Positions 3,397 through 56,059 of a stretch of 64,000 nt of DNA are shown here, piece by piece. Under the pieces are notes generated by a model. It searched no databases. It saw only the letters and a program-made list of their open reading frames with translations, and was not told the origin of the DNA. Made by a program: the position numbers and the translations under genes. Source of the DNA: Escherichia phage vB_EcoM-pEB20; sequence record OP114733, one strand, 5' to 3'. The first letter of the stretch is position 1. Each line of letters opens with the position of its first letter.

Positions 3397-3912
3397 ATGA
3401 ATATTTGTTTAGGCAGTACAATTCCTAAGGGTTACGTAATTGATGTCACCACTTCGGAAAATGATGGTGACAACTATAAAACTAAAACGTTGTTTGGTGT
3501 AGAAGAGCATGAGCTCCAACAGTTTAAATATCTCTTGAAGAAATTTAAGAGTCGTCATTCTAGCACTAAAGCTGAACATTACTGTGGTAATACACCATTC
3601 AGTGATTGCTCGCTTTTAATCTATGAATACTTGGTTGAAGGACTGTTCTCAGACCAGCTTTATCCAGAATTCATTAAAAAGGTCTTTGATATTGAAGTCG
3701 ACCTCGGTAATAAATCTGAAGAAGATGAATCACGTGTATTTGACCTGTTCCGTGAGAATGGATATTTGGTATCAGAAGGTCTCATTGATATTCTCGGCCA
3801 TGCTTCTGAATATTATGATTATGATTTCTTGCGTGTAGTTGAATGTGTTGAATTTGCTTATATTGAAGAAGAAATCGTTTTGCCGACTGTTAAAATGATT
3901 GATTTGCTTTAA
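3397..3912 (+). CDS. hypothetical acidic protein
   Basis: 171 aa ORF, no recognised motif. Confidence 0.55.
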   Translation: MNICLGSTIPKGYVIDVTTSENDGDNYKTKTLFGVEEHELQQFKYLLKKFKSRHSSTKAEHYCGNTPFSDCSLLIYEYLVEGLFSDQLYPEFIKKVFDIEVDLGNKSEEDESRVFDLFRENGYLVSEGLIDILGHASEYYDYDFLRVVECVEFAYIEEEIVLPTVKMIDLL

Positions 3913-3991
3913 GAATTATGTGTTATTATTAATTCATACCCTCTATTACCAAAGGTGCTCTAAAGTGCCTTTCATAATAGAAAGTTATTTA

Positions 3992-4065
3992 GGCCCTGTA
4001 GCTCAACGGTTAGCAGCAGTCCCCTCATAAGGGAAAGGTTACCAGTTCGAATCTGGTCTGGGTCA
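3992..4065 (+). tRNA. tRNA with CAU anticodon (Met or Ile2/lysidine type)
   Basis: Acceptor stem GGCCCTG/CTGGGTC, T-arm ACCAG-TTCGAAT-CTGGT, anticodon loop CTCATAA; no encoded CCA; D and anticodon stems each have one mismatch. Confidence 0.7.
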
Positions 4066-4071
4066 TATATT

Positions 4072-4148
<77 letters not shown>

Positions 4149-4166
4149 ACTTTAAGTGAGGAAAAT

Positions 4167-4511
4167 ATGAAAGGCAATATTTATCTGGTAGTTCATGATT
4201 TAACGTTTTATTTTAACGAACATGATACAGTTATTTCAGGCCGATTGATTAATTTGTTATACCAACACGCAGATTACATCTATGTTCAAAATGAATTCGG
4301 CCATTGGAAGTTCATTAAAAACCGTTCCAGGTTAACTAGTTTTGAATACTTTGACCGTAAAGACCTTTTAAACGAAATTCCATTGCAACATCGGTTCCAG
4401 AAACGCGAATCATTATATTATTGCCGTCATATACCAAACGCCGAATGTGTTAATGAAGCGATTAATCTATGGCGTCGGCGTCGAGAGCAAATTGATGATA
4501 TGCCAAAATAA
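4167..4511 (+). CDS. hypothetical protein
   Basis: 114 aa from ATG 4167 with GAGGA SD; track ORF start 4119 lies inside tRNA-Arg and is rejected. Confidence 0.55.
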   Translation: MKGNIYLVVHDLTFYFNEHDTVISGRLINLLYQHADYIYVQNEFGHWKFIKNRSRLTSFEYFDRKDLLNEIPLQHRFQKRESLYYCRHIPNAECVNEAINLWRRRREQIDDMPK

Positions 4512-4822
4512 GAAGCCGGGTCGCTACCGGCAAGTCGTCGGACTGATGTTCCCTGGGTAAGGACTAGCCTTAATAAATCTTTATGTTTTGTTAATGCTCC
4601 CTTACATCACAGCAGAAACGGCGCACAGAATTATCGATTCGAGGAAATATCTTTGCCGTAAGCCGAGTAGCGTTTTTGACGGAACGTTCGGATATGGTCG
4701 AGATATGGCCTTTTAAAAATATTAAGTAGCGTCAACTACTTAATAACCAGGTTCAAATCCCGGCGTTTCGTACAAACACTTGCCTTAGCAGGTGGAACCC
4801 CGACAAGGTTGCCGCAAGGCTT

Positions 4823-4853
4823 AGCCCCTTCCGAAAGGTTGGGGCTTTTTTTT
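4823..4853 (+). terminator. rho-independent terminator
   Basis: Hairpin AGCCCC..GGGGCT followed by T8 run. Confidence 0.7.
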
Positions 4854-4897
4854 GCATAATAATAAATAGATAAGTTAATTAACTTAGGAAAAGTAAC

Positions 4898-5362
4898 ATG
4901 AAATCATATGCAGAATTTTTGACTGAACAATCTAGTTCAGATGTAAAAGCCGCTGCGATTGCAGCAATTCAAGCAGGTAAATATTCTTACAAAGACGCCT
5001 CTGATGAAGAACGTTTCCGTTTTATTAGAGATTTTAAAGCCGAAGGTTTTACTAATGCTAATACTGTTAGCCGAGTTTTTAAAAGCCTAGCTGCGTCAGG
5101 TGAATTGTTCCAGAAAGCTACAGGTAAAGCACCTGCGCCAAAAACAGACCCTAAAGCAGCTCAAGAAAAAAATATCGCCAAAGGAATTATTTCTAAGTAT
5201 GAAGCAATTCTTAAAGAGCTTTTAGTAATCAAAACAGAAGGCCAGAAACTGGCACGAGCACATAGCTTCAAAGATAATCCTCACGCTCATAGCCTTGAGT
5301 ATGTTGAAGATATCCAAAAACTTATTAAAGACCGTATCTGGTCTGCTAAACAAATTAAATAA
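4898..5362 (+). CDS. internal-protein-like protein with CTS-like N-terminus
   Basis: 154 aa starting MKSYAEFLTEQ (CTS variant); Lys/Ala-rich. Confidence 0.6.
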   Translation: MKSYAEFLTEQSSSDVKAAAIAAIQAGKYSYKDASDEERFRFIRDFKAEGFTNANTVSRVFKSLAASGELFQKATGKAPAPKTDPKAAQEKNIAKGIISKYEAILKELLVIKTEGQKLARAHSFKDNPHAHSLEYVEDIQKLIKDRIWSAKQIK

Positions 5363-5368
5363 TAGAAT

Positions 5369-5396
5369 GCCCCTTCCTTATGGTTGGGGCCTTTTG
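5369..5396 (+). terminator. rho-independent terminator
   Basis: Hairpin GCCCC-ttccttatggtt-GGGGC then CTTTTGG; same hairpin recurs at 20605. Confidence 0.65.
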
Positions 5397-5428
5397 GTAT
5401 CTAGGGCATAAAAATATTTCATAAAGTT

Positions 5429-5457
5429 GTTTACTTCTTCCCTAGATGTGTTACTAT
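5429..5457 (+). promoter_or_regulatory. early promoter
   Basis: GTTTAC at 5429, 17 nt spacer, extended -10 TGtTACTAT. Confidence 0.55.
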
Positions 5458-5485
5458 AGACCTATCAAAACATGAGGAGAATATT

Positions 5486-5791
5486 ATGAGTCTTTACACT
5501 GAACTGAATAAAAAATCTGAAGAATCTGCTGAAACTATTTTTAAAAACGTGCAAAAGCGTATTTTAGAAAAGATGTATAACACCGCAGCTAAAGGTGAAA
5601 AATCTTGCCGGTTCCCGATGAGGTGTTCTTCCGATTTATGCGCAAATACTATTGAATGGCTGGAAAGTGAAGGTCTTACGGTAGAGAAAAACCCGGCGAC
5701 TTCTATTGACAGCGAATCATATATTAGTATTTCTTGGGATAAACCTCGTATGAATGAAGGACACTACAAGTTGTTAAGTTGGAAAAATTAA
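5486..5791 (+). CDS. hypothetical protein
   Basis: 101 aa, SD GAGGAGAA upstream. Confidence 0.5.
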   Translation: MSLYTELNKKSEESAETIFKNVQKRILEKMYNTAAKGEKSCRFPMRCSSDLCANTIEWLESEGLTVEKNPATSIDSESYISISWDKPRMNEGHYKLLSWKN

Positions 5792-7978: not shown

Positions 7979-8316
7979 CCGTATGGCCTTCTCTTGGTGA
8001 GAACATTCTAATTTTTATTATGAGTATTGGCATGGGATTTGCCTTTGGATTAGTTGGATTTCTTATTGACGGCGTTGTGTTAGGATTTATAGGGAACACT
8101 GGTGGATTCACAGACCAATGGCAGGACTTACGATATACTCAAGCCTTTGCATCCATTGCATCATTTTGTACTATAGTCTATTTTTACTACGATTTTATAA
8201 ACCATAACAAGAAAAATAAAAAGGTTTACGCTTCTCAAATGATTAGTTATAATGAACTCCTAGCTAGACGTGAAAATGAAACAATCGAAAACTTTATTAA
8301 GGAATGTAGAAAATGA
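7957..8316 (+). CDS. membrane protein of the NFIKECR C-terminal family
   Basis: 119 aa, TM segments, C-terminal ENFIKECRK. Confidence 0.55.
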   Translation: MQKPQLLTVWPSLGENILIFIMSIGMGFAFGLVGFLIDGVVLGFIGNTGGFTDQWQDLRYTQAFASIASFCTIVYFYYDFINHNKKNKKVYASQMISYNELLARRENETIENFIKECRK

Positions 8317-8618
8317 GTAAGATTATTGAAATTAAAGTACCAGAGTTTAATGATGCCAAATCCGCTTCAGATGCAATTTATAAACTTCTGAATCAAGCTG
8401 AACGTATCGAAGAAGAAGCAACAAAGATCGCAGACCAATATGCCGTATCATTTTCTGTAGGTGATTATGGTAGCGGTCGTACTTATTATCCTAAGGGTGA
8501 AATCGTATCCCAGTGGATGAAAGATGAAATTGAAAATAATGGTGGCGATGTTAAGCGTGAAGGTAATGGTTACGTTATTACTGAAGGTGCTTGGGTTTCG
8601 TCTTCTGCGTTGTGCTAA
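8313..8618 (+). CDS. small protein, paralog 1 of GWVSSSxxC family
   Basis: 101 aa ending GAWVSSSALC. Confidence 0.55.
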   Translation: MSKIIEIKVPEFNDAKSASDAIYKLLNQAERIEEEATKIADQYAVSFSVGDYGSGRTYYPKGEIVSQWMKDEIENNGGDVKREGNGYVITEGAWVSSSALC

Positions 8619-8627
8619 GGAATCATT

Positions 8628-8900
8628 ATGTCTAAAGAACAAACCGAACTGGCTGAAGCTGTAGCAAAAATCTATGCAGCTATTGAGGCTGCCAAAGAAA
8701 TTGCTGATAAACAAAACACAACATTCGACTTGTACCCAGCTTATGGTATGGGTGGAACCTATCATTCACCCGGACATCTTAAAGCCGATCTTGAACGTTG
8801 TACAAAAAACGGCTATGCTGAATGGGCTGACGTTTACCAATACGACTACAACCTGAGCCTTGAAGATGGCGGTTGGGTTGCATCTTCTCACACTTGCTAA
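8628..8900 (+). CDS. small protein, paralog 2 of GWVSSSxxC family
   Basis: 90 aa ending GGWVASSHTC; junction TGCTAAGGAA gives SD for itself. Confidence 0.55.
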   Translation: MSKEQTELAEAVAKIYAAIEAAKEIADKQNTTFDLYPAYGMGGTYHSPGHLKADLERCTKNGYAEWADVYQYDYNLSLEDGGWVASSHTC

Positions 8901-8909
8901 GGAAACAAT

Positions 8910-9107
8910 ATGTCTCGTGAATTAGATTGTGCTGTACGTACGGCAGTAGCTGCTCTGGAAAACCTGTTCCAAATTGCAACAGAAGAACGCGAAGAAGTTA
9001 CATTATGGATTGAAGATAACGCAGGTCTGAATCTCCAGGACGCGATCTCATTATCCCACAATAGTATCACTGTTCAAGGCTGGGTATCATCTAGTTATTC
9101 TTGCTAA
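8910..9107 (+). CDS. small protein, paralog 3 of GWVSSSxxC family
   Basis: 65 aa ending QGWVSSSYSC. Confidence 0.5.
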   Translation: MSRELDCAVRTAVAALENLFQIATEEREEVTLWIEDNAGLNLQDAISLSHNSITVQGWVSSSYSC

Positions 9108-47886: not shown

Positions 47887-47926
47887 TATAATGTCATGGA
47901 CGGTAAACTAATTAAATGAGAGAAAT

Positions 47927-48562
47927 ATGAAAACTACTCCTATTACTATCGCTATTGACGCAATTATAAAACAAGCTTCTTCTTTGGCCGCTATGGCCAA
48001 AGTAATTAGTCAAAACCCTGCTCGTTATAATGCTATTCTAGAAACTCTTCGACGCCCTGGACTTAGTAATTATGAAAGCCGGGTAATTATTACAGGTGTT
48101 GGTAAGAATGCTAATATCGCAACTAAAGCTTCCGAGACTTTTGCTTCACTCGGTATCCCGAGTATGTACTTGAACACTGGGCATTATTCTCACGGTGATG
48201 CAGGATTCATTGCGCCTAATGATGTGTTGATTCATATTAGTCGTTCTGGTAAAACTGAAGAAATGATAGGCGTGGCTAAGCATCTTAAAATGATTCGTCC
48301 GAATGTCAAACAGATTCTGTTGCATTGTAACCCAGACATTCCACAAGAAAATGAAGCCCTTTTTGATTACTCTTTCTGTACAGGCATCGCGGTAGAGGTT
48401 GATGAGAATTCTCTGGCTCCGACTATGTCCACTACATTGTTGTTAGCGCTTATCGATACGTTTGCTATCAACCTTTCGTCTGAGCGTGGATTTACCTCTA
48501 ATGACTTCCTTAAGTTCCATCCAGGCGGTGCACTAGGTGCCATGTTACGAGGCGAACAATGA
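47927..48562 (+). CDS. SIS-domain sugar-phosphate isomerase (arabinose-5-phosphate isomerase-like, KdsD/GutQ family)
   Basis: 211 aa; GVGKNANIATKASETFASLG, HGD, LAPTMSTT and HPGGALG motifs align with the KdsD SIS domain; no CBS domains. Confidence 0.8.
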   Translation: MKTTPITIAIDAIIKQASSLAAMAKVISQNPARYNAILETLRRPGLSNYESRVIITGVGKNANIATKASETFASLGIPSMYLNTGHYSHGDAGFIAPNDVLIHISRSGKTEEMIGVAKHLKMIRPNVKQILLHCNPDIPQENEALFDYSFCTGIAVEVDENSLAPTMSTTLLLALIDTFAINLSSERGFTSNDFLKFHPGGALGAMLRGEQ

Positions 48563-48743
48563 AAGCAATAACAATAGGACTTTTACTATTGATGCTTGTC
48601 ATGACTATCTACTGGAGCTTAACGGCTCCAGTAATGATTCCAACACTTGTAATTGGATGGATTATGATTGGACTACAAGCAAAGTATGAATGCTTTAACT
48701 AGAATAGTGTACAATACTCCTACTTACCAATGAGGACTTCAAC

Positions 48744-50429
48744 ATGAAAAAAGCTGTTATTCTTGGTGCTGGACTGGCAACTCGTTTGTATCCAATAACG
48801 CACCATATTCCTAAGGTGCTTGTTAACTATAAACAAGACACTATTCTAAGCAATTTGTATACAATTTATTCTGACCTTGGCGCAGATGAAATTATTGTAG
48901 TAGTTCATTCAAAATTTGCTGAAACTGTTCGAGCTTATTGTGAGCAAGAAGGGTTCAATGTGACTATTCGTACAGTTGATGAAGCGTATGGTTCTGCTTA
49001 TGCTCTTGCTAAATTACACAAAGATTTAGACGGCCATAATGTAATTGTTAACTGGTGTGATATTATTCCTGATTTTGGTTCATGGTCTTGGAATGTTAAC
49101 GCAATCTATGTTAAGGGTGACGAATGTCGATATAATTTCGACGGTGAAAATATCACTAACGTAGGTTCAACAGGTGGTAATGTTGTAGGAATTTATCAGT
49201 TCAAAGACTGGGAATTCTATATGGGTTCTACTGATGAGGAAATTCATGAATACTGCAAAGGACGTGATTTCGTAGAATTCCTTTACGGCAGCGCATTCAA
49301 TAAATCAGAGCTTATGAATCTAATTGATTTAGGTGATATGCCTAAACTTGAAAAAGCTCATGAAGTTCGTGAACTTAATCGTAGTTTTAATGCAGTTGAA
49401 ATTGGTGAAGAAACTGTAACTAAATTCGCATTAACCGAACAGGGTCGAGCTCTTCAGAAAGATGAGATTTCATGGTATCTTAAAGTGAAATCAGATTCAG
49501 TTCCTCAGTTAGTTTCGGTAAATGAAAATAATTTTGAAATGGAACGTATTAAAGGTAAGCCGGCATTTGAATATATTAAATCCAAATCAAGTCTTGCTCG
49601 TCCACAAATTGTTGATGCAATTTTAGATGCACTGAAATTCAGCACAGACACTTATTTTGTAAGTCCTGAAACTGTTCGTCGTGATTTCACTAAAGAGTTC
49701 TATACGAAAGTTATTGATCGTTGTGAAAGCATTCAACCATTGATTGATTCATTTGGTAAAATCACACATGTGAACTACACTAAGATTGGACGTCTGAAGC
49801 CAATGCTGAAACAAGCTTTAGAACACCTTATTCGTTATCATAACCGTTCTCAGGGACAGTACTCTGTTATTCATGGTGACCCGAACTTCAGTAATACTAT
49901 GATTACTGATAACGGCGAAGTCAAGTTTATAGACCCTCGTGGATATTTTGGCGAAACCAAGATTTATGGGCCAAAATTGTATGATGAAGCTAAAGTGCTT
50001 TATGCTGTTTCAGGATATGATGAATTCAATGCTAATCCGACCTGGGGACAGTTTACTATTGATGAAACAACTTGTAATGTGACTATTAACATCAATCCAT
50101 TAGTTTACAAATATGGAAAGATGAGTTCGTTTAACGAGTATCATCATTTGGCTGTAGCAATTATCTGGATTGCATTAGGTGGTTATTTCAAGAATAATCC
50201 ACTTAAAGCGGTAGCCGCATATTATAAAGGTATGGAACTTCTGACTAAGCAATTACGTAACATGGGCCGTGTACTTCAGGACGGCTCTATTAGTTATGAC
50301 GTAGCAGAACCTGTAACGGCTACTCTGATTACAAAAAATCCTGGTAAATGGGTACTAACTGATAAAGAAACCGGTGTTTCCTATCGTCCAATCGGTGGCG
50401 ATATCACTCATCAATGGGAACGAATTTAA
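48744..50429 (+). CDS. bifunctional sugar-1-phosphate nucleotidyltransferase / kinase-like protein
   Basis: 561 aa; N-terminal GAGLATRLYP (RmlA/GlmU-type NTase); C-terminal HGDPNFSN...D.E resembles APH/choline-kinase fold. Confidence 0.7.
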   Translation: MKKAVILGAGLATRLYPITHHIPKVLVNYKQDTILSNLYTIYSDLGADEIIVVVHSKFAETVRAYCEQEGFNVTIRTVDEAYGSAYALAKLHKDLDGHNVIVNWCDIIPDFGSWSWNVNAIYVKGDECRYNFDGENITNVGSTGGNVVGIYQFKDWEFYMGSTDEEIHEYCKGRDFVEFLYGSAFNKSELMNLIDLGDMPKLEKAHEVRELNRSFNAVEIGEETVTKFALTEQGRALQKDEISWYLKVKSDSVPQLVSVNENNFEMERIKGKPAFEYIKSKSSLARPQIVDAILDALKFSTDTYFVSPETVRRDFTKEFYTKVIDRCESIQPLIDSFGKITHVNYTKIGRLKPMLKQALEHLIRYHNRSQGQYSVIHGDPNFSNTMITDNGEVKFIDPRGYFGETKIYGPKLYDEAKVLYAVSGYDEFNANPTWGQFTIDETTCNVTININPLVYKYGKMSSFNEYHHLAVAIIWIALGGYFKNNPLKAVAAYYKGMELLTKQLRNMGRVLQDGSISYDVAEPVTATLITKNPGKWVLTDKETGVSYRPIGGDITHQWERI

Positions 50430-50794
50430 TGCAACTATGCTTCGATGTCGATGATTGTATAACCGAATGGAATAACAATCGTGATTACGCTAATTTTAAA
50501 CCGGACCTAGAAATGGTGGCAGCCATTAATGCCTTGTATGACGCAGGGCATACCATCACGCTTTACACTGCTCGTGGTATGAAGTCTGTAGGTCCTGGAC
50601 GTATTGCTGTAGATATCCTACCAGGTCTGTTACAGAACTTAGCTAACATTGGTTTGAAGTATCATAATTTGCTAACACATAAACCAGTATATGATTGGAT
50701 TATCGACGACAAAGCTATGCGTCCTGACGAATTCAAAGCTCTTATGAATAAAGGCGAATTCGAAACATTTAAATCATATAAACCAAATCTATAA
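50429..50794 (+). CDS. HAD-superfamily phosphatase-like protein
   Basis: About 121 aa; motif I FDVDDCIT; start 50429 (TAATG overlap) or 50414. Confidence 0.6.
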   Translation: MQLCFDVDDCITEWNNNRDYANFKPDLEMVAAINALYDAGHTITLYTARGMKSVGPGRIAVDILPGLLQNLANIGLKYHNLLTHKPVYDWIIDDKAMRPDEFKALMNKGEFETFKSYKPNL

Positions 50795-50840
50795 TAATTT
50801 AAGTAAGACCTGCAAAAACCGTCGCATCAATTAACGCGAG

Positions 50841-52010
50841 ATGCAAAAAATGAATACTTTTAAAATTGGAACGAATTTCGATTTAGCTCTTCTTGATAAA
50901 ATCGTAGAGCTCAATAAAACTTATCCTAATAGCTTGATAAATGAAGTATACGGCTCTACAAGAGAAATGGCTTTTGTAGCAGCCAGACCTGATTTTAGGC
51001 TTCCTGACGTTGACAAAAAGATGTTAGAAGACTACGTTAAACGTTGTAACGAATTAGGTATTTGCTTTAACTATACACTCAACACGATAAATCCTGGTTC
51101 AAAAAGAGAACTAGTTGAGTGGAAGAAGAAAGCTATTCAGGATTATGTTCAGTATCTTTGGTCAATAGGCGTATGGCGTATTACTATCGCTAACCCTGTT
51201 GTTATGGAAATTGTTCGTGAAGTCAATAAAGACATTGAGATTGAAGTTTCAACAATTCTACATGTCGATGCTGTAACTCAAATCAAATACTTGCATGACC
51301 AGTATAATATCAAAAAGGTCTGCTGTGGAATTCATAAGAACCGTTCAGTTTCTTTCCTGAAGCGTGCAGCAGAGTTTTGCAATAAGAACAATATAATATT
51401 TGAAGTTCTTGTAAATGAGTTCTGTTCTAATGCTGGTAAAGGGTATACAACACATTGTAGCTATCGTGACTCTTGCTATATTTTCCATAGTACTGATGTT
51501 ACAGCTGATGATGCTAAATCCTTAAACGGATATCCTATGCAGCACTGTATTAAAGCTCGTGATACAGACCCATTTAACTGGTTGAGAACTCGTTTTGTTC
51601 GTCCTCAAGATTTGAAACTTTATAATGATATTGGTATCACTCAATTTAAAGTTTCAGGACGTACAGGTAGCACAGACTACATTTTGAAAGTTCTTGAAGC
51701 ATACGCTTCTGAAAAGTTTGAAGGTAATTTGTTAGAACTGTGGAAGCCTTTAGAGACTATTTTCACTCTTGAAAACGAAACTGAGTTTTCACATACGGTA
51801 AATATTGAAACCTCTTTGTTAGACGGCTTTTTAGAAAAAAGGTGGTTCAGACATCCAGATTTCGATTGTGCTAATGAAATCTGCGGGACGACGTGTACAT
51901 ATTGTGAAAGATATTATAAACGTCAGTTATCTAAAAATGGGTTATCAGAAAACTCTATATCTATTATTGATATAACTAACTCTGATGACGCTTTGAGGTA
52001 CCCGGAATGA
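50841..52010 (+). CDS. peptidase U32-family-like protein (putative Fe-S dependent enzyme)
   Basis: 389 aa; EVLVNEFCSNAGKG and QFKVSGRTGSTDYI resemble U32 signature regions; C-terminal Cys cluster C-x4-C-x3-C-x2-C; assignment tentative. Confidence 0.5.
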   Translation: MQKMNTFKIGTNFDLALLDKIVELNKTYPNSLINEVYGSTREMAFVAARPDFRLPDVDKKMLEDYVKRCNELGICFNYTLNTINPGSKRELVEWKKKAIQDYVQYLWSIGVWRITIANPVVMEIVREVNKDIEIEVSTILHVDAVTQIKYLHDQYNIKKVCCGIHKNRSVSFLKRAAEFCNKNNIIFEVLVNEFCSNAGKGYTTHCSYRDSCYIFHSTDVTADDAKSLNGYPMQHCIKARDTDPFNWLRTRFVRPQDLKLYNDIGITQFKVSGRTGSTDYILKVLEAYASEKFEGNLLELWKPLETIFTLENETEFSHTVNIETSLLDGFLEKRWFRHPDFDCANEICGTTCTYCERYYKRQLSKNGLSENSISIIDITNSDDALRYPE

Positions 52011-52246
52011 TTTCTAGAAAAACTTTTAACCACCAACTTAATGAAGAGATTTTGACTATAAAACTGAACACTAACGAACAAATTCTTAAAAAGGCCCTGA
52101 TGGGCCTGTTTGAAACTAAAGCGGCTAAAGTGATTAAAGAACCTGTTCAATTGGAATACTACGCTGATGCATTTCTTCATAGTGTTCTTGGAAGTATCGA
52201 TGCTGAAGCTTTACGTTATATCAACATTGTCAAGAAATTCAAATAA
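52007..52246 (+). CDS. hypothetical protein
   Basis: 79 aa ORF; ATGA overlap. Confidence 0.45.
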   Translation: MISRKTFNHQLNEEILTIKLNTNEQILKKALMGLFETKAAKVIKEPVQLEYYADAFLHSVLGSIDAEALRYINIVKKFK

Positions 52247-52288
52247 GCTTTACGAATTGAGTATATAATAAATTGTATTGAGGTAAAC

Positions 52289-53005
52289 ATGGGAAAACAT
52301 AACACAATGAAATATATCAAAGCCGCAGATTTTCAAACCGCATTTAAAGCAGTCAATCGTGAAATTTTAGAAAACCCGGAATTCGTAACTGATTCTCGTA
52401 TTGGACGTTGTAATGAAATTGGGTCTATGACAGTAGTTGTTGACACTCCATCATCATTCAAAATGACCGACCCACGTATTAACCGCATCTCTTATGAATA
52501 TGCCGAAGACTTCTGGAAGTTTATGATTTCTGGTGGTACCAACGCAGAAGAAGCGTTTAAGGCATATCCTAATGTCGCTAAATTTATTTCTAAACCAAAA
52601 TCAGATGTTTTGCCGGCGAACTTCAACACTTTCTATGGTCCTCGCATTGCGGCCCAATTACCAGCTCTTCTAAAAGAACTTAAAGAGAAGCCTAACTCTC
52701 GAAGAGTTGTGTTCCAAATTCTAGAAAGTTCTGATCAGGCTTTGCTTGATTCAGACGAAACGCTTGAATATCCATGTACTGACTCAGTGACTTATTATAT
52801 TCGTGATGGTAAGCTTTATACCCACTGTCATATGCGTTCTCAGAACTGTGCTGTTGTTATGCAGTTGGATTTTTATCTCCAAGGAAAATTACTTCATTAT
52901 ATCGCTAACGAATGCGGTGTAGAAGTTGGTGATTATACTCATACCATGGTAAGTGCCCATGTGTTTGAACGTGATTTTGATTATGTTAAAGGATTCCTTG
53001 ACTAA
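52289..53005 (+). CDS. 42: thymidylate-synthase-fold pyrimidine hydroxymethylase (gene 42-like dCMP hydroxymethylase)
   Basis: 238 aa; PNSRRVVFQI and catalytic-Cys region YPCTDSVTYYIRDGKLYTHCHMRSQN align to TS/dCMP-HMase motifs; more divergent from T4 gp42 than neighbours. Confidence 0.7.
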   Translation: MGKHNTMKYIKAADFQTAFKAVNREILENPEFVTDSRIGRCNEIGSMTVVVDTPSSFKMTDPRINRISYEYAEDFWKFMISGGTNAEEAFKAYPNVAKFISKPKSDVLPANFNTFYGPRIAAQLPALLKELKEKPNSRRVVFQILESSDQALLDSDETLEYPCTDSVTYYIRDGKLYTHCHMRSQNCAVVMQLDFYLQGKLLHYIANECGVEVGDYTHTMVSAHVFERDFDYVKGFLD

Positions 53006-53904
53006 TGGCTATTTTCCGCGTACCTATCTTGAGTATGCGGTCTTATGAAACTGGACAGTATGCTATCCTTAAGGATGGCAACTTCCAACTTCATTTGCAC
53101 CGTGCTAATCCGGGTGATGTGATTACATATCCACGTAATGCATCTGATATTAAAGAATGCGAACGTCTTTTCCCAGAATTTAAGTTTGTTCCGTTATGGT
53201 ATAAAGATAACGCATATAATACTCGTAAATATTTCTGGTCTGAAAATGAATTTGTAGTTGATTCGTTGATTGCTTATTATGATTGTGATTTTCTCATCAC
53301 GGATATCACTGGATATGATGGTGCTTTTGACGTAGAATTCAATTTCAATATCACTGCAGACCCTAATAAACCACGTTTTTATATTGACGAATTCTTAAAA
53401 ACTGATATGTTGTCGGTTAATCGTTCACTTCAAACTACTGTGTTGAATGAACGTCAAAAAGAAGTGCTGGTTAACGCAGGTGCAGATGGTAATAAGATTA
53501 TCGTAACGCAGAAAGTTATACGTCCTTCCATCATGCAGCGTCTTGTAGGTGATTTGGCTCCTATTCATCTAGATGGTATTTTTCATCCATTTCGAATTAG
53601 TGACCCGTGCTATCGTTTTGAACAAGTGGTTGAATGTGCAATTCAATTAGGCCAACCGCTTTATATAACCGATCCAAATAATAGCTTCGACAGAAATAAG
53701 TATCCTGAAGAAGCACTGATTCGAATTTTTAAACCAACTAAAACTGAGTACTATCAAATTCTTAAAGGACGTCCGAAGATTCAATATTTCGAAAATCCTG
53801 AAGAAGTATTCCATCCAGGTCTTGGTGAGTTCATCTACTTTAACGCTTTAATTTCTTCGCCGTATAATATACCTAAATATGAAGATGTCGTAATCGAGGA
53901 ATAA
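53005..53904 (+). CDS. hypothetical protein at the position of T4 beta-glucosyltransferase
   Basis: 299 aa; no recognised motif; synteny only. Confidence 0.55.
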   Translation: MAIFRVPILSMRSYETGQYAILKDGNFQLHLHRANPGDVITYPRNASDIKECERLFPEFKFVPLWYKDNAYNTRKYFWSENEFVVDSLIAYYDCDFLITDITGYDGAFDVEFNFNITADPNKPRFYIDEFLKTDMLSVNRSLQTTVLNERQKEVLVNAGADGNKIIVTQKVIRPSIMQRLVGDLAPIHLDGIFHPFRISDPCYRFEQVVECAIQLGQPLYITDPNNSFDRNKYPEEALIRIFKPTKTEYYQILKGRPKIQYFENPEEVFHPGLGEFIYFNALISSPYNIPKYEDVVIEE

Positions 53905-53905
53905 A

Positions 53906-54454
53906 ATGGCTAAAATTATTTTAGTAGATGGCCCGGATAATGCTGGTAAAACAACTTTCATTAATGACATAATGGAAATTAGTGAAAGATATGTAAAGAT
54001 TGATTTCCCTAAACGAACAGTTGATGGGCGTTTCGATGTTAAGTCTCGAAATGAAGTTGGCTGTTTCGAAACGATGTTGAATTATTTAGACCCTACTAAG
54101 ATTTATCTGTTAGACCGTGGATATATTAGTAACTGGGTTTATGGACGTATTCGACAAGATGCGGACTCGATTCTTGACGTTTATGAACAGGACTATGTTC
54201 GTCTTTGCCAAAACCATGATGTGTTCACAATTATTTTAACACGTAACGAAATGACTGAAAGTTTTGAAGACGACCTTATTACTTTGTCTTCACTCAGTTT
54301 CAATACAGTCATTTCACATTTTGAAGAGTTTGCAATTCATAACAAAATCCAAACGTATCAATTACTTAATCATGATGGTGCTAACAAAGTTATAGGATTT
54401 AATGCAAGCGAACGTAATTATTTGATTACAGAAATTATCAAATGGGCTCGTTAA
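53906..54454 (+). CDS. P-loop kinase-like protein
   Basis: 182 aa; Walker A VDGPDNAGKTT at N-terminus as in NMP/small-molecule kinases. Confidence 0.6.
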   Translation: MAKIILVDGPDNAGKTTFINDIMEISERYVKIDFPKRTVDGRFDVKSRNEVGCFETMLNYLDPTKIYLLDRGYISNWVYGRIRQDADSILDVYEQDYVRLCQNHDVFTIILTRNEMTESFEDDLITLSSLSFNTVISHFEEFAIHNKIQTYQLLNHDGANKVIGFNASERNYLITEIIKWAR

Positions 54455-54552
54455 GAGCCATTTAAAGTTTTAAATGCTGTATAACCCTTAGTATATAATC
54501 ATCTTATCTTTTAAACATGAGTAAAATATAATGATGCCTATGGAAAAATACA

Positions 54553-55725
54553 ATGTCTGATTTAAAATCTCGTCTGATTAAAGCTTCTACTTCTAAAATG
54601 ACTGCGGACTTGACTAAGTCTAAGCTGTTTAATAATCGCGATGAAGTCCCTACTCGTATTCCGATGTTGAATATTGCATTAGGCGGTGCACTGAATGCCG
54701 GGTTGCAATCAGGCTTAACTATTTTTGCTGCTCCTTCTAAACACTTTAAAACGTTGTTTGGACTGACCATGGTTGCAGCGTATATGAAGAAATATAAAGA
54801 TGCAATCTGTTTGTTTTATGACTCAGAATTCGGTGCTTCAGAATCTTATTTTCGTTCAATGGGTGTTGATTTAGACCGTGTAGTTCATACTCCTATTCAA
54901 TCTGTCGAACAACTTAAAGTTGATATGACTAATCAGCTAGATGCAATCGAACGTGGCGAGAAAGTTATTATCTTTATTGACTCAATCGGTAACACTGCAT
55001 CTAAGAAAGAAACCGAAGATGCTTTGAACGAGAAAGTTGTAGGCGATATGTCTCGTGCTAAGGCACTTAAATCTTTATTTCGTATCGTAACGCCTTATCT
55101 GACTATTAAAGATATTCCGTGCGTTGCAATTAACCACACTGCTATGGAAATTGGTGGATTATATCCTAAAGAGATTATGGGTGGTGGTACAGGTATTCTT
55201 TATTCAGCCAACACCGTATTCTTTATCTCTAAACGTCAGGTTAAAGAAGGTACAGAATTGACCGGTTATGACTTCACGTTGAAAGCAGAAAAATCTCGTA
55301 CAGTTAAAGAGAAATCTACTTTCCCAATCACGGTTAATTTTGATGGCGGTATTGACCCATTCAGTGGCTTGTTAGAAATGGCAACTGAAATTGGTTTTGT
55401 AGTTAAGCCTAAAGCCGGTTGGTATGCTCGTGAATTCCTTGACGAAGAAACAGGTGAAATGATTCGTGAAGAGAAATCGTGGCGTGCTAAAGCTACTGAT
55501 TGTGTAGAATTCTGGGGACCTTTGTTTAAACATAAGCCTTTCCGTGACGCAATTGAAATGAAATATAAGCTAGGCGCTATCTCGTCTATTAAAGAAGTTG
55601 ATGACGCTGTTAACGACCTTATTAATTGCAAAGCAACAACTAAAGTTCCGGTTAAAGCTTCTGATGCTCCATCTGCAGCAGATATTGAAAACGACCTGGA
55701 CGAAATGGAAAATTTTGATGAATAA
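54553..55725 (+). CDS. uvsX: RecA-like recombinase UvsX
   Basis: 390 aa MSDLKSRLIKASTSKMTADL...; Walker A GLTIFAAPSKHFKT; near-identical to T4 UvsX as recalled. Confidence 0.95.
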   Translation: MSDLKSRLIKASTSKMTADLTKSKLFNNRDEVPTRIPMLNIALGGALNAGLQSGLTIFAAPSKHFKTLFGLTMVAAYMKKYKDAICLFYDSEFGASESYFRSMGVDLDRVVHTPIQSVEQLKVDMTNQLDAIERGEKVIIFIDSIGNTASKKETEDALNEKVVGDMSRAKALKSLFRIVTPYLTIKDIPCVAINHTAMEIGGLYPKEIMGGGTGILYSANTVFFISKRQVKEGTELTGYDFTLKAEKSRTVKEKSTFPITVNFDGGIDPFSGLLEMATEIGFVVKPKAGWYAREFLDEETGEMIREEKSWRAKATDCVEFWGPLFKHKPFRDAIEMKYKLGAISSIKEVDDAVNDLINCKATTKVPVKASDAPSAADIENDLDEMENFDE

Positions 55726-56059
55726 TCTCGATGATTTAAATCTAGAAATCGTTGATGAATCCCCTTCTTCGGAAGGGGAAGACATTCGCAAAGAACGAGT
55801 GTTTAATGAATCTCTTAAAATTGTCCGTTCAGCAATGGAAAATGTCATTCAAGAGATTCTGATTACACTTGAAGACGGTTCCCATCATATAGTCTATATT
55901 ACAAAACTAGACTGGGTTGATGGTAAAATCGTAATGGACTTTGCAGTTCTTGACCAGGACAGAAAAGCAGAACTTGCACCACACGTTGAAAAATGTGTTA
56001 CAATGCAAGTACAACAAGCTTTTAATGAACGGACCAAGAAAAAATTTAAATTCTTTTAA
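55718..56059 (+). CDS. 40: gp40-like protein (by position between uvsX and 41)
   Basis: 113 aa; ATG overlaps uvsX stop; synteny-based. Confidence 0.5.
   Translation: MNNLDDLNLEIVDESPSSEGEDIRKERVFNESLKIVRSAMENVIQEILITLEDGSHHIVYITKLDWVDGKIVMDFAVLDQDRKAELAPHVEKCVTMQVQQAFNERTKKKFKFF

Follow-up and report, generated by a model that had tools for sequence, protein, structure and literature searches.

Several described systems are close to the locus analyzed here. T4 beta-gt (CAZy GT63, PF09198) has a GT-B superfold, uses a uridine diphosphate (UDP)-sugar as donor, and decorates a C5-substituted cytosine of phage DNA. In RB69, whose DNA carries arabinosyl-5-hydroxycytosine, gp46:47 has been modeled as "arabinosyltransferase 1" (Lee et al., Nucleic Acids Research [NAR] 2026; PMC13326640). 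Here, we focused on one open reading frame (ORF) for a protein of 299 amino acids (aa) in a 64,000-nucleotide (nt) stretch of DNA from Escherichia phage vB_EcoM-pEB20 (sequence record OP114733), which we refer to as the window:

53005..53904, + strand, 299 aa: GT-B-fold glycosyltransferase, predicted base-proximal (alpha) arabinofuranosyltransferase on 5-hydroxycytosine

With moderate confidence, we predict that this protein is the first, base-proximal glycosyltransferase (GT) of the RB69-like arabinosyl-5-hydroxycytosine pathway, with DNA as its most likely acceptor.

The ORF and T4 beta-gt, to which we liken it, occupy the same slot downstream of a gp42-type gene and upstream of uvsX; because the T4 gene order is 42 - beta-gt - segA - uvsX, the ORF is at the beta-gt position. 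It begins with an ATG that overlaps the TAA stop codon of the upstream gene at 52289..53005 (TAATG), and its own stop codon is separated by 1 nt from the start of a gene for a 182-aa thymidine monophosphate (TMP)-kinase-like protein (53906..54454), while uvsX (54553..55725) lies downstream of both. A preliminary description, made from the sequence alone, had placed the ORF in the beta-gt slot between the 42-like gene and uvsX. A comparison of the T4 map and the window bears out this placement, but the kinase gene in front of uvsX had been overlooked. A scan for promoters and terminators returned no more sites than in shuffled sequence.

Identity and fold of the 299-aa protein

The deep conservation of 53005..53904 rules out a chance ORF. 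The profile of PHROG 3891, an entry without a function annotation, covers residues 1-298 (E = 3.4e-156). We identified 138 homologs at E ≤ 1e-3 in a set of 5.8 billion proteins, 231 representative clusters in an exhaustive profile search of a 1.84-billion set, and, using tblastn, matches in 348 phage records. The window is RB69-like Mosigvirus DNA: Its stretch 47900-55800 is 97% identical over the full length to RB69 and ~150 other Mosigvirus genomes (megablast), and the proteins encoded by the ORF in the Mosigvirus records of the phage collection are 98-100% identical. The window gene is the intact form of RB69 ORF047c and ORF046c: RB69 DNA aligned to the ORF is identical except for one inserted T, and this 1-nt insertion splits the gene in the GenBank entry of RB69. 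According to Lee et al., the split of gp46:47 stems from a sequencing error (PMC13326640). In the BFVD, the ORF matches Q7Y591 and Q7Y592 with 99% identity, and its closest entries in the viral structure library are an Acinetobacter phage ortholog and the two RB69 halves. In the RB69 record (AY303349; stretch L002), apparent single-base errors split both ORF047c/046c (8129-9029) and ORF053c/052c (3846-5532). The split in the record is probably why a 2018 study of RB69 arabinosylation missed the ORF.

The ORF is an ortholog of RB69 gp46:47, DLP3 gp79, and Thanatos TH1_063 ("arabinosyltransferase 1", PHROG 3891) and differs from them in nothing material, while an ortholog in record NRG-P0074 is labeled "glycosyltransferase". 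The preliminary description had called the protein unannotatable, which these two names contradict. For RB69 and DLP3, the gene was described in 2025-2026 together with its fold and a proposed role, and, because the window protein is essentially identical to the published ones, we rate the ORF as already known.

An AlphaFold2 (AF2) model of the protein (predicted local distance difference test, 95.2; predicted template modeling score, 0.90) has two Rossmann-like beta/alpha/beta domains and an interdomain cleft, i.e., the GT-B fold. In structure comparisons, the model scored 17.2 against sucrose-phosphate synthase (6kih; 266 residues aligned), 16.4 against BshA, 16.3 against HepE, 15.7 against PimA, 13.5 against the HY126 glycosyltransferase (9iqz), and 13.0 against T4 alpha-gt (1y6f), while T4 beta-gt was not among the top 60 matches. 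Thus, the fold prediction and structure search that had been suggested as a check in the preliminary description returned a GT-B fold and not an unrelated one. In a Foldseek search of the PDB, the top matches were UDP-N-acetylglucosamine (UDP-GlcNAc) 2-epimerases (E ~1e-6) and MshA, which belong to the same superfamily. These matches could be taken to indicate a GT-B-fold enzyme that remodels the donor, for instance in the manner of a UDP-sugar 2-epimerase, rather than a transferase. We consider this very unlikely: The GT-B architecture is common to these enzymes, the arabino configuration is already supplied by the SIS isomerase encoded in the same cluster, and mono-arabinosylating phages would be left without any transferase.

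At the sequence level, the ORF matched no Pfam family at E ≤ 0.01 and no NCBIfam model, and single-sequence and profile searches of the PDB gave only a chance match (E = 0.25) and no solved structure of the family. BLASTP detected no similarity to T4 beta-gt, T4 alpha-gt, RB69 gp3, or TAGT of Serratia phage PS2. The E values of 3.7 and 0.25 for T4 beta-gt and alpha-gt, respectively, and the lack of a match to Pfam T4-Gluco-transf agree with the earlier statement that no similarity to these two enzymes can be recognized. In hhalign, the family profile matched gp3 with a probability of 0.5%. The solved HY126 glycosyltransferase (9iqz, 9ir0) is an ortholog of gp3 and not of the ORF, and the window contains no homolog of T4 alpha-gt, beta-gt, TAGT, or gp3. 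According to its model, the 299-aa protein is a GT-B-fold enzyme, and it has no sequence relationship to beta-gt.

The GT4-type retaining GT-B enzymes (6kih, BshA, PimA, and MshA) and T4 alpha-gt (1y6f) resemble the ORF in fold with 8-12% identity. However, the ORF is ~60-100 residues shorter than these enzymes, its family has no match to Pfam Glycos_transf_1 or Glyco_transf_4, and it has the invariant H270-P-G...E275 in place of the E-x7-E motif. In an alignment of 70 diverse homologs, the N-terminal domain is strongly conserved, and R197, K246, and H270-P271-G272 are invariant and E275 conserved. As judged from the alignment and the model, these residues putatively fall in the region of the GT-B diphosphate/ribose site. 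The helix at the place of E-x7-E reads FHPGLGEFIYF; it includes the invariant H-P-G but lacks a second Glu at +8, and this register is deduced rather than superposed.

Because Serratia phage PS2 has both genes, we rejected the possibility that the ORF is a beta-gt ortholog; rather, it is a functional analog of the T4 glucosyltransferases. PS2 (stretch L009, 6217-9925) carries in tandem a true deoxycytidine monophosphate (dCMP) hydroxymethylase gene (MRSND), a gene for a 308-aa distant relative of the ORF, a TAGT-family gene, and a true beta-gt, and thus three GT-like genes at one locus. The 308-aa relative is 24% identical to the ORF over the N-terminal domain, and many family-invariant residues are changed in it.

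First and later arabinoses

RB69 DNA carries beta-D-arabinofuranose (Araf)-(1-3)-alpha-D-Araf that is ether-linked to O5 of cytosine (Lee et al., PMC13326640). RB69 gp3, its HY126 counterpart (9iqz, 9ir0), and DLP3 gp76 and gp77 are the second and third (beta) arabinosyltransferases and have no sequence relationship to the ORF. The gp3 gene is located outside the window, with rIIA on one side and the topoisomerase gene on the other, and has a narrower phyletic range than the ORF. While the 348 records with the ORF family comprise Escherichia, Acinetobacter, Klebsiella, Shigella, Serratia, Enterobacter, Proteus, and Yersinia phages, the 211 records with gp3 homologs comprise Escherichia/Shigella and Acinetobacter phages only; among the matches listed, Acinetobacter phages have two gp3 copies per record.

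This distribution matches the number of arabinoses. Thanatos, in which the syntenic ortholog TH1_063 (stretch L005, 5460-6362) is 48% identical to the ORF, is mono-arabinosylated with a single GT (PMC13326640). The DNA of the Serratia/Prodigiosinella phage LC53 carries one arabinose and that of Bas46 two, while DLP3-type Acinetobacter phages have three (Lee et al., PMC13326640). The gp3 gene dose is one in the di-arabinosylated Mosigvirus phages and two in the tri-arabinosylated Acinetobacter phages. DLP3 gp76 and gp77 add the third arabinose on DNA, and both act on already arabinosylated DNA (PMC13326640). Because gp3 homologs are confined to Escherichia/Shigella and Acinetobacter phages, the mono-arabinosylated Thanatos and Serratia phages have only this GT. 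Because the number of gp3 genes tracks the extra arabinoses while the ORF family is universal, a base-proximal transferase is supported. As judged from these sequence comparisons, the phyletic pattern supports the first sugar for the ORF, and not the second or third that the preliminary description had offered as an example.

The reverse assignment, in which gp3 installs the first arabinose and the ORF adds the second sugar or another decoration, has precedents in the literature. Thomas et al. 2018 suggested that ORF003c (gp3) is the arabinosyltransferase, the HY126 ortholog of gp3 was crystallized with UDP (He et al.; PDB 9iqz/9ir0), and a gp3 homolog is a "putative hmC-arabinosyltransferase" in the BASEL annotation (hmC, 5-hydroxymethylcytosine). 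Nevertheless, Thanatos and all ORF-carrying Serratia, Klebsiella, Enterobacter, Proteus, and Yersinia phages lack a gp3 homolog, Thanatos and LC53 are arabinosylated despite this lack, and the gp3-type DLP3 gp76 and gp77 act on already arabinosylated DNA (PMC13326640). In addition, Bas46 is viable after deletion of Aat (arabinosyltransferase), which would fit a decorating enzyme, depending on which gene Aat corresponds to. We therefore regard this assignment as improbable and retain the ORF product as the candidate for the first arabinosyltransferase.

Substrate base, sugar donor, and acceptor

The ORF lies in a cluster with the following genes:

47927..48562, + strand: SIS-domain arabinose-5-phosphate isomerase (RB69 gp55), ribulose-5-phosphate to arabinose-5-phosphate, first sugar-donor step (Pfam SIS; PHROG 5670, E = 4e-116; PMC13326640)
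48559-48702, + strand: 47-aa hydrophobic ORF (MKAITIGLLLLMLVMTIYW...) between the SIS and kinase/uridylyltransferase genes (= RB69ORF054c)
48744..50429, + strand: bifunctional sugar kinase and nucleotidyltransferase, 561 aa (RB69 gp52:53, HY126 AfhE type; Pfam NTP_transferase in the N-terminal part)
50414..50794, + strand: HAD-family phosphatase (RB69 gp51, AfhF type), Araf-1,5-bisphosphate (Araf-1,5-P2) to Araf-1-phosphate (Araf-1-P) (PHROG 1238; TIGR01689, E = 4.6e-12; PMC13326640)
50841..52010, + strand: Peptidase_U32-family protein (RB69 gp50; PF01136, E = 7e-11)
52007..52246, + strand: 79-aa conserved small protein (RB69 gp49) between the U32 and hydroxylase genes (PHROG 8601, E = 2.8e-51; RB69ORF049c)
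52289..53005, + strand: flavin-dependent dCMP 5-hydroxylase (5-hydroxy-dCMP [5hodCMP] synthase; RB69 gp48), a thymidylate synthase (TS) homolog (Pfam Thymidylat_synt)
53906..54454, + strand: TMP-kinase-like P-loop kinase, 182 aa (RB69 gp45; PHROG 761 thymidylate kinase, E = 8.5e-45; weak TIGR00041 match)

Through its junctions on both sides, the ORF is coupled in translation to the genes for the 5hodCMP synthase and the nucleotide kinase.

The 42-like neighbor defines the base. The 52289..53005 protein is near-identical to PDB entries 9iqc, 9ir2, and 9iqu (E = 8e-161), of which 9iqc is the HY126 enzyme, and reads MRSQN where T4 and PS2 gp42 read MRSND. This D169N signature is diagnostic of 5-hydroxy-dCMP synthases (Lee et al., PMC13326640), and RB69 gp48 has been demonstrated experimentally to make 5hodCMP with oxygen from O2 and a flavin cofactor (PMC13326640). 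The near-identity to 9iqc, the MRSQN signature, and the activity of RB69 gp48 rule out a dCMP hydroxymethylase. Based on this neighbor and the chemistry of RB69 DNA, the substrate base is 5-hydroxycytosine and not hmC, which had been named previously. The proposal of a DNA glycosyltransferase therefore holds with respect to the GT-B fold, the beta-gt locus, and the cluster of sugar-nucleotide and modified-cytosine genes, but not with respect to the base and the order of the sugars.

The donor genes lie 1-5 kb upstream of the ORF. The 561-aa protein has weak matches to kinase families in its C-terminal part and matches NCBIfam sugar-1-phosphate nucleotidylyltransferases; TIGR01689, which the HAD protein matches, is an NCBIfam capsule biosynthesis phosphatase. 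Enzymes of the gp52:53/AfhE type act twice, making Araf-1,5-P2 at first and UDP-Araf later (He et al., cited in PMC13326640). The route to UDP-arabinofuranose from the isomerase, the kinase/uridylyltransferase, and the HAD phosphatase was described by Lee et al. (PMC13326640), and He et al. reconstituted part of it for phage HY126.

According to the accessible text of the Thanatos study, TH1_063, the 48%-identical syntenic ortholog, converts UTP and xylose-1-phosphate to UDP-xylose in vitro, as determined by liquid chromatography-tandem mass spectrometry (PMC12838424). This observation would fit a UDP-pentose pyrophosphorylase as the source of the activated sugar. However, such an assignment is at odds with the orthology of TH1_063 to the predicted arabinosyltransferase, the fold is GT-B and not that of a nucleotidyltransferase, and neither the ORF nor TH1_063 matches PF00483, while the neighboring 561-aa protein does. 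Moreover, the assay as described in that text includes no catalytically dead control, and a co-purified Escherichia coli uridylyltransferase would be a plausible source of the activity. Given the GT-B fold, the lack of a nucleotidyltransferase signature, and the bona fide nucleotidyltransferase next door, pyrophosphorylase activity is unlikely to be the physiological role of TH1_063, and we consider such a role for the ORF extremely improbable.

In the pathway that we propose, the upstream TS homolog would hydroxylate dCMP at C5, as demonstrated experimentally by others, and 5hodCMP would be phosphorylated and polymerized into phage DNA, as others have shown using the gp1-type kinase. UDP-D-arabinofuranose would be generated at the same time by the SIS isomerase, the kinase/uridylyltransferase, and the HAD phosphatase, as has partly been shown for HY126. 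The C-terminal Rossmann domain of the GT would bind UDP-Araf and its conserved N-terminal domain the 5-hydroxycytosine nucleotide, and one arabinofuranose would be moved to the O5 hydroxyl to give the alpha-D-Araf-O5-cytosine of virion DNA. By analogy with the T4 glucosyltransferases, the acceptor would most likely be a flipped-out base in newly replicated DNA. The unrelated gp3, encoded outside the window, would then add the beta-(1-3) arabinose. With a common UDP-Araf anomer as donor, the two enzymes would have to differ in mechanism, one retaining and one inverting, given that the first arabinose is alpha-linked and the second beta-linked.

Several observations weigh against this prediction. 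In the accessible literature, which did not cover He et al. 2026 and Mahler et al. 2025, enzymatic activity has not been demonstrated for any family member. Purified DLP3 gp79 gave no arabinosylation with 5-hydroxycytosine (5hoC)-DNA and UDP-Araf or UDP-arabinopyranose (data not shown in PMC13326640), and Lee et al. leave it undecided whether the first arabinose goes onto DNA or onto the mononucleotide (PMC13326640). In the experiments described in the accessible text of PMC12838424, TH1_063 modified neither DNA nor nucleotides, although donor and acceptor were the wrong ones. No curated GT model matches the protein, the 70 aligned family members lack any GT match even at E ≤ 5, and inspection of the sequences did not reveal the GT4 E-x7-E motif in the family. 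Finally, the family is acidic, with a median isoelectric point (pI) of 5.2 compared to 9.05 for T4 beta-gt. Because PS2 beta-gt is also acidic, the pI is a weak argument that does not discriminate for DNA binding.

Some of these observations, namely the inactivity of DLP3 gp79 on 5hoC-DNA (PMC13326640), the acidic family, and the choice of acceptor explicitly left open by Lee et al. (PMC13326640), would also fit a nucleotide acceptor. In that case, the GT would arabinosylate 5hodCMP before replication, the adjacent kinase would phosphorylate arabinosyl-5hodCMP, and the polymerase would incorporate a glycosylated dCTP analog. RB69 gp159, a gp1-type kinase, accepts 5hodCMP as a substrate and is sufficient for 5hodC to be built into DNA in E. 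coli (PMC13326640), which leaves the second, TMP-kinase-like enzyme without an assigned role. In addition, the TS homolog, the GT, and the kinase form a conserved, translationally coupled triad, and eight representative metagenomic clusters encode fusions of the GT with a gp45-like kinase domain, in both domain orders. On the other hand, to our knowledge, all phage DNA glycosylations characterized are post-replicative, following the T4 paradigm. The later arabinoses are added onto DNA (PMC13326640), and the GT is also fused to the HAD phosphatase of the sugar branch, i.e., to a non-adjacent step. Moreover, the negative result with gp79 lacks published detail, and a wrong donor anomer or enantiomer could explain it. 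Because of this negative result, the open acceptor in PMC13326640, and the coupled or fused kinase without an assigned role, the pre-replicative route stays plausible, but we consider it rather unlikely and favor DNA as the acceptor. If true, it would be the first pre-replicative, nucleotide-level glycosylation in DNA hypermodification.

Cluster conservation and significance

The order 5hodCMP synthase - GT - TMP-kinase-like gene, with UDP-arabinose genes in the cluster, is found in the window, in Thanatos, and in L007 and L010. Distant homologs of the ORF (38-40% identity) are encoded on 216-kb and 356-kb T4-like metagenomic contigs in the arrangement SIS ... kinase/uridylyltransferase - HAD - TS(D169N) - GT - 182-185-aa kinase. 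On a 42-kb contig with the order TS - [HAD-GT fusion] - SIS - nucleotidyltransferase, the GT is fused to the sugar-branch phosphatase. Among 261 family proteins, 8 have an N-terminal KdsC-like HAD domain and 8 a gp45-like kinase domain, which is C-terminal in 7 and N-terminal in 1. The fused kinase domains are homologous to the free-standing neighboring kinases (hhalign probability 96.5%, E = 7e-10), and the fused HAD domains are homologous to the free HAD protein of contig L007 (hhalign 98.5%), which they match instead of the window's own HAD protein. Using phmmer, the kinase and HAD protein of the window detected nothing in the fusion proteins, and the kinase homology was detectable only by profile-profile comparison. 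Because the GT is also fused to the phosphatase of a non-adjacent step, we take the fusions to signal a shared pathway and not consecutive reactions.

A Peptidase_U32 gene recurs beside the GT/kinase module. It is located at 50841-52010 (+ strand) in the window, after the kinase in Thanatos (L005, 6927-8063), and after GT-kinase fusions on two unrelated metagenomic contigs (L014, 10179-11276; L016, 2605-3552), on which no TS homolog is visible. The distant clusters L007, L010, and L013 have a TS homolog and no U32 gene within the stretch examined. U32 proteins include O2-independent hydroxylases, such as RlhA, which makes 5-hydroxycytidine in rRNA. By analogy, 5-hydroxycytosine could be made anaerobically by way of the U32 gene, whose RB69 form, gp50, is listed by Lee et al. 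only as a "sugar or heterocycle reductase" (PMC13326640). A gene for a Flavodoxin_2 (flavin mononucleotide reductase-like) protein adjoins the SIS gene in L007 (605-1123) and L010 (1-523), while none was seen in the window stretch examined; its product may be the source of reduced flavin for the flavin-dependent dCMP hydroxylase.

Other observations concern the donor genes. In the window, the kinase/uridylyltransferase and HAD genes overlap by 16 nt (~50414-50429) without an insert, while in NRG-P0074 a homing-endonuclease gene lies between them (L001, 5515-6276). Two labels in NRG-P0074 look like annotation errors: "dCMP deaminase" for the 561-aa kinase/uridylyltransferase and "phosphoheptose isomerase" for the HAD phosphatase. 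For RB69ORF054c (window 48559-48702), the RB69 record notes similarity to the T4 42-imm intercistronic region; the product looks like a small membrane peptide.

Because the gene assignment has already been published, no new type of system emerges from our analysis. What is still of interest is the biochemistry, i.e., DNA versus nucleotide acceptor and retaining versus inverting mechanism, the relationship to the adjacent kinase, and the GT-kinase fusions found here. Arabinosyl-5-hydroxycytosine shields phage DNA from restriction enzymes, the Brig1 glycosylase, and some CRISPR systems, and the RB69-like, Acinetobacter, and Serratia phages that carry it include candidates for phage therapy. Within this pathway, the 299-aa enzyme, a member of a small family of ~230 clusters in 1.8 billion representatives that no curated model recognizes, is predicted to carry out the committing step, in which a sugar is attached directly to the ring oxygen of cytosine.

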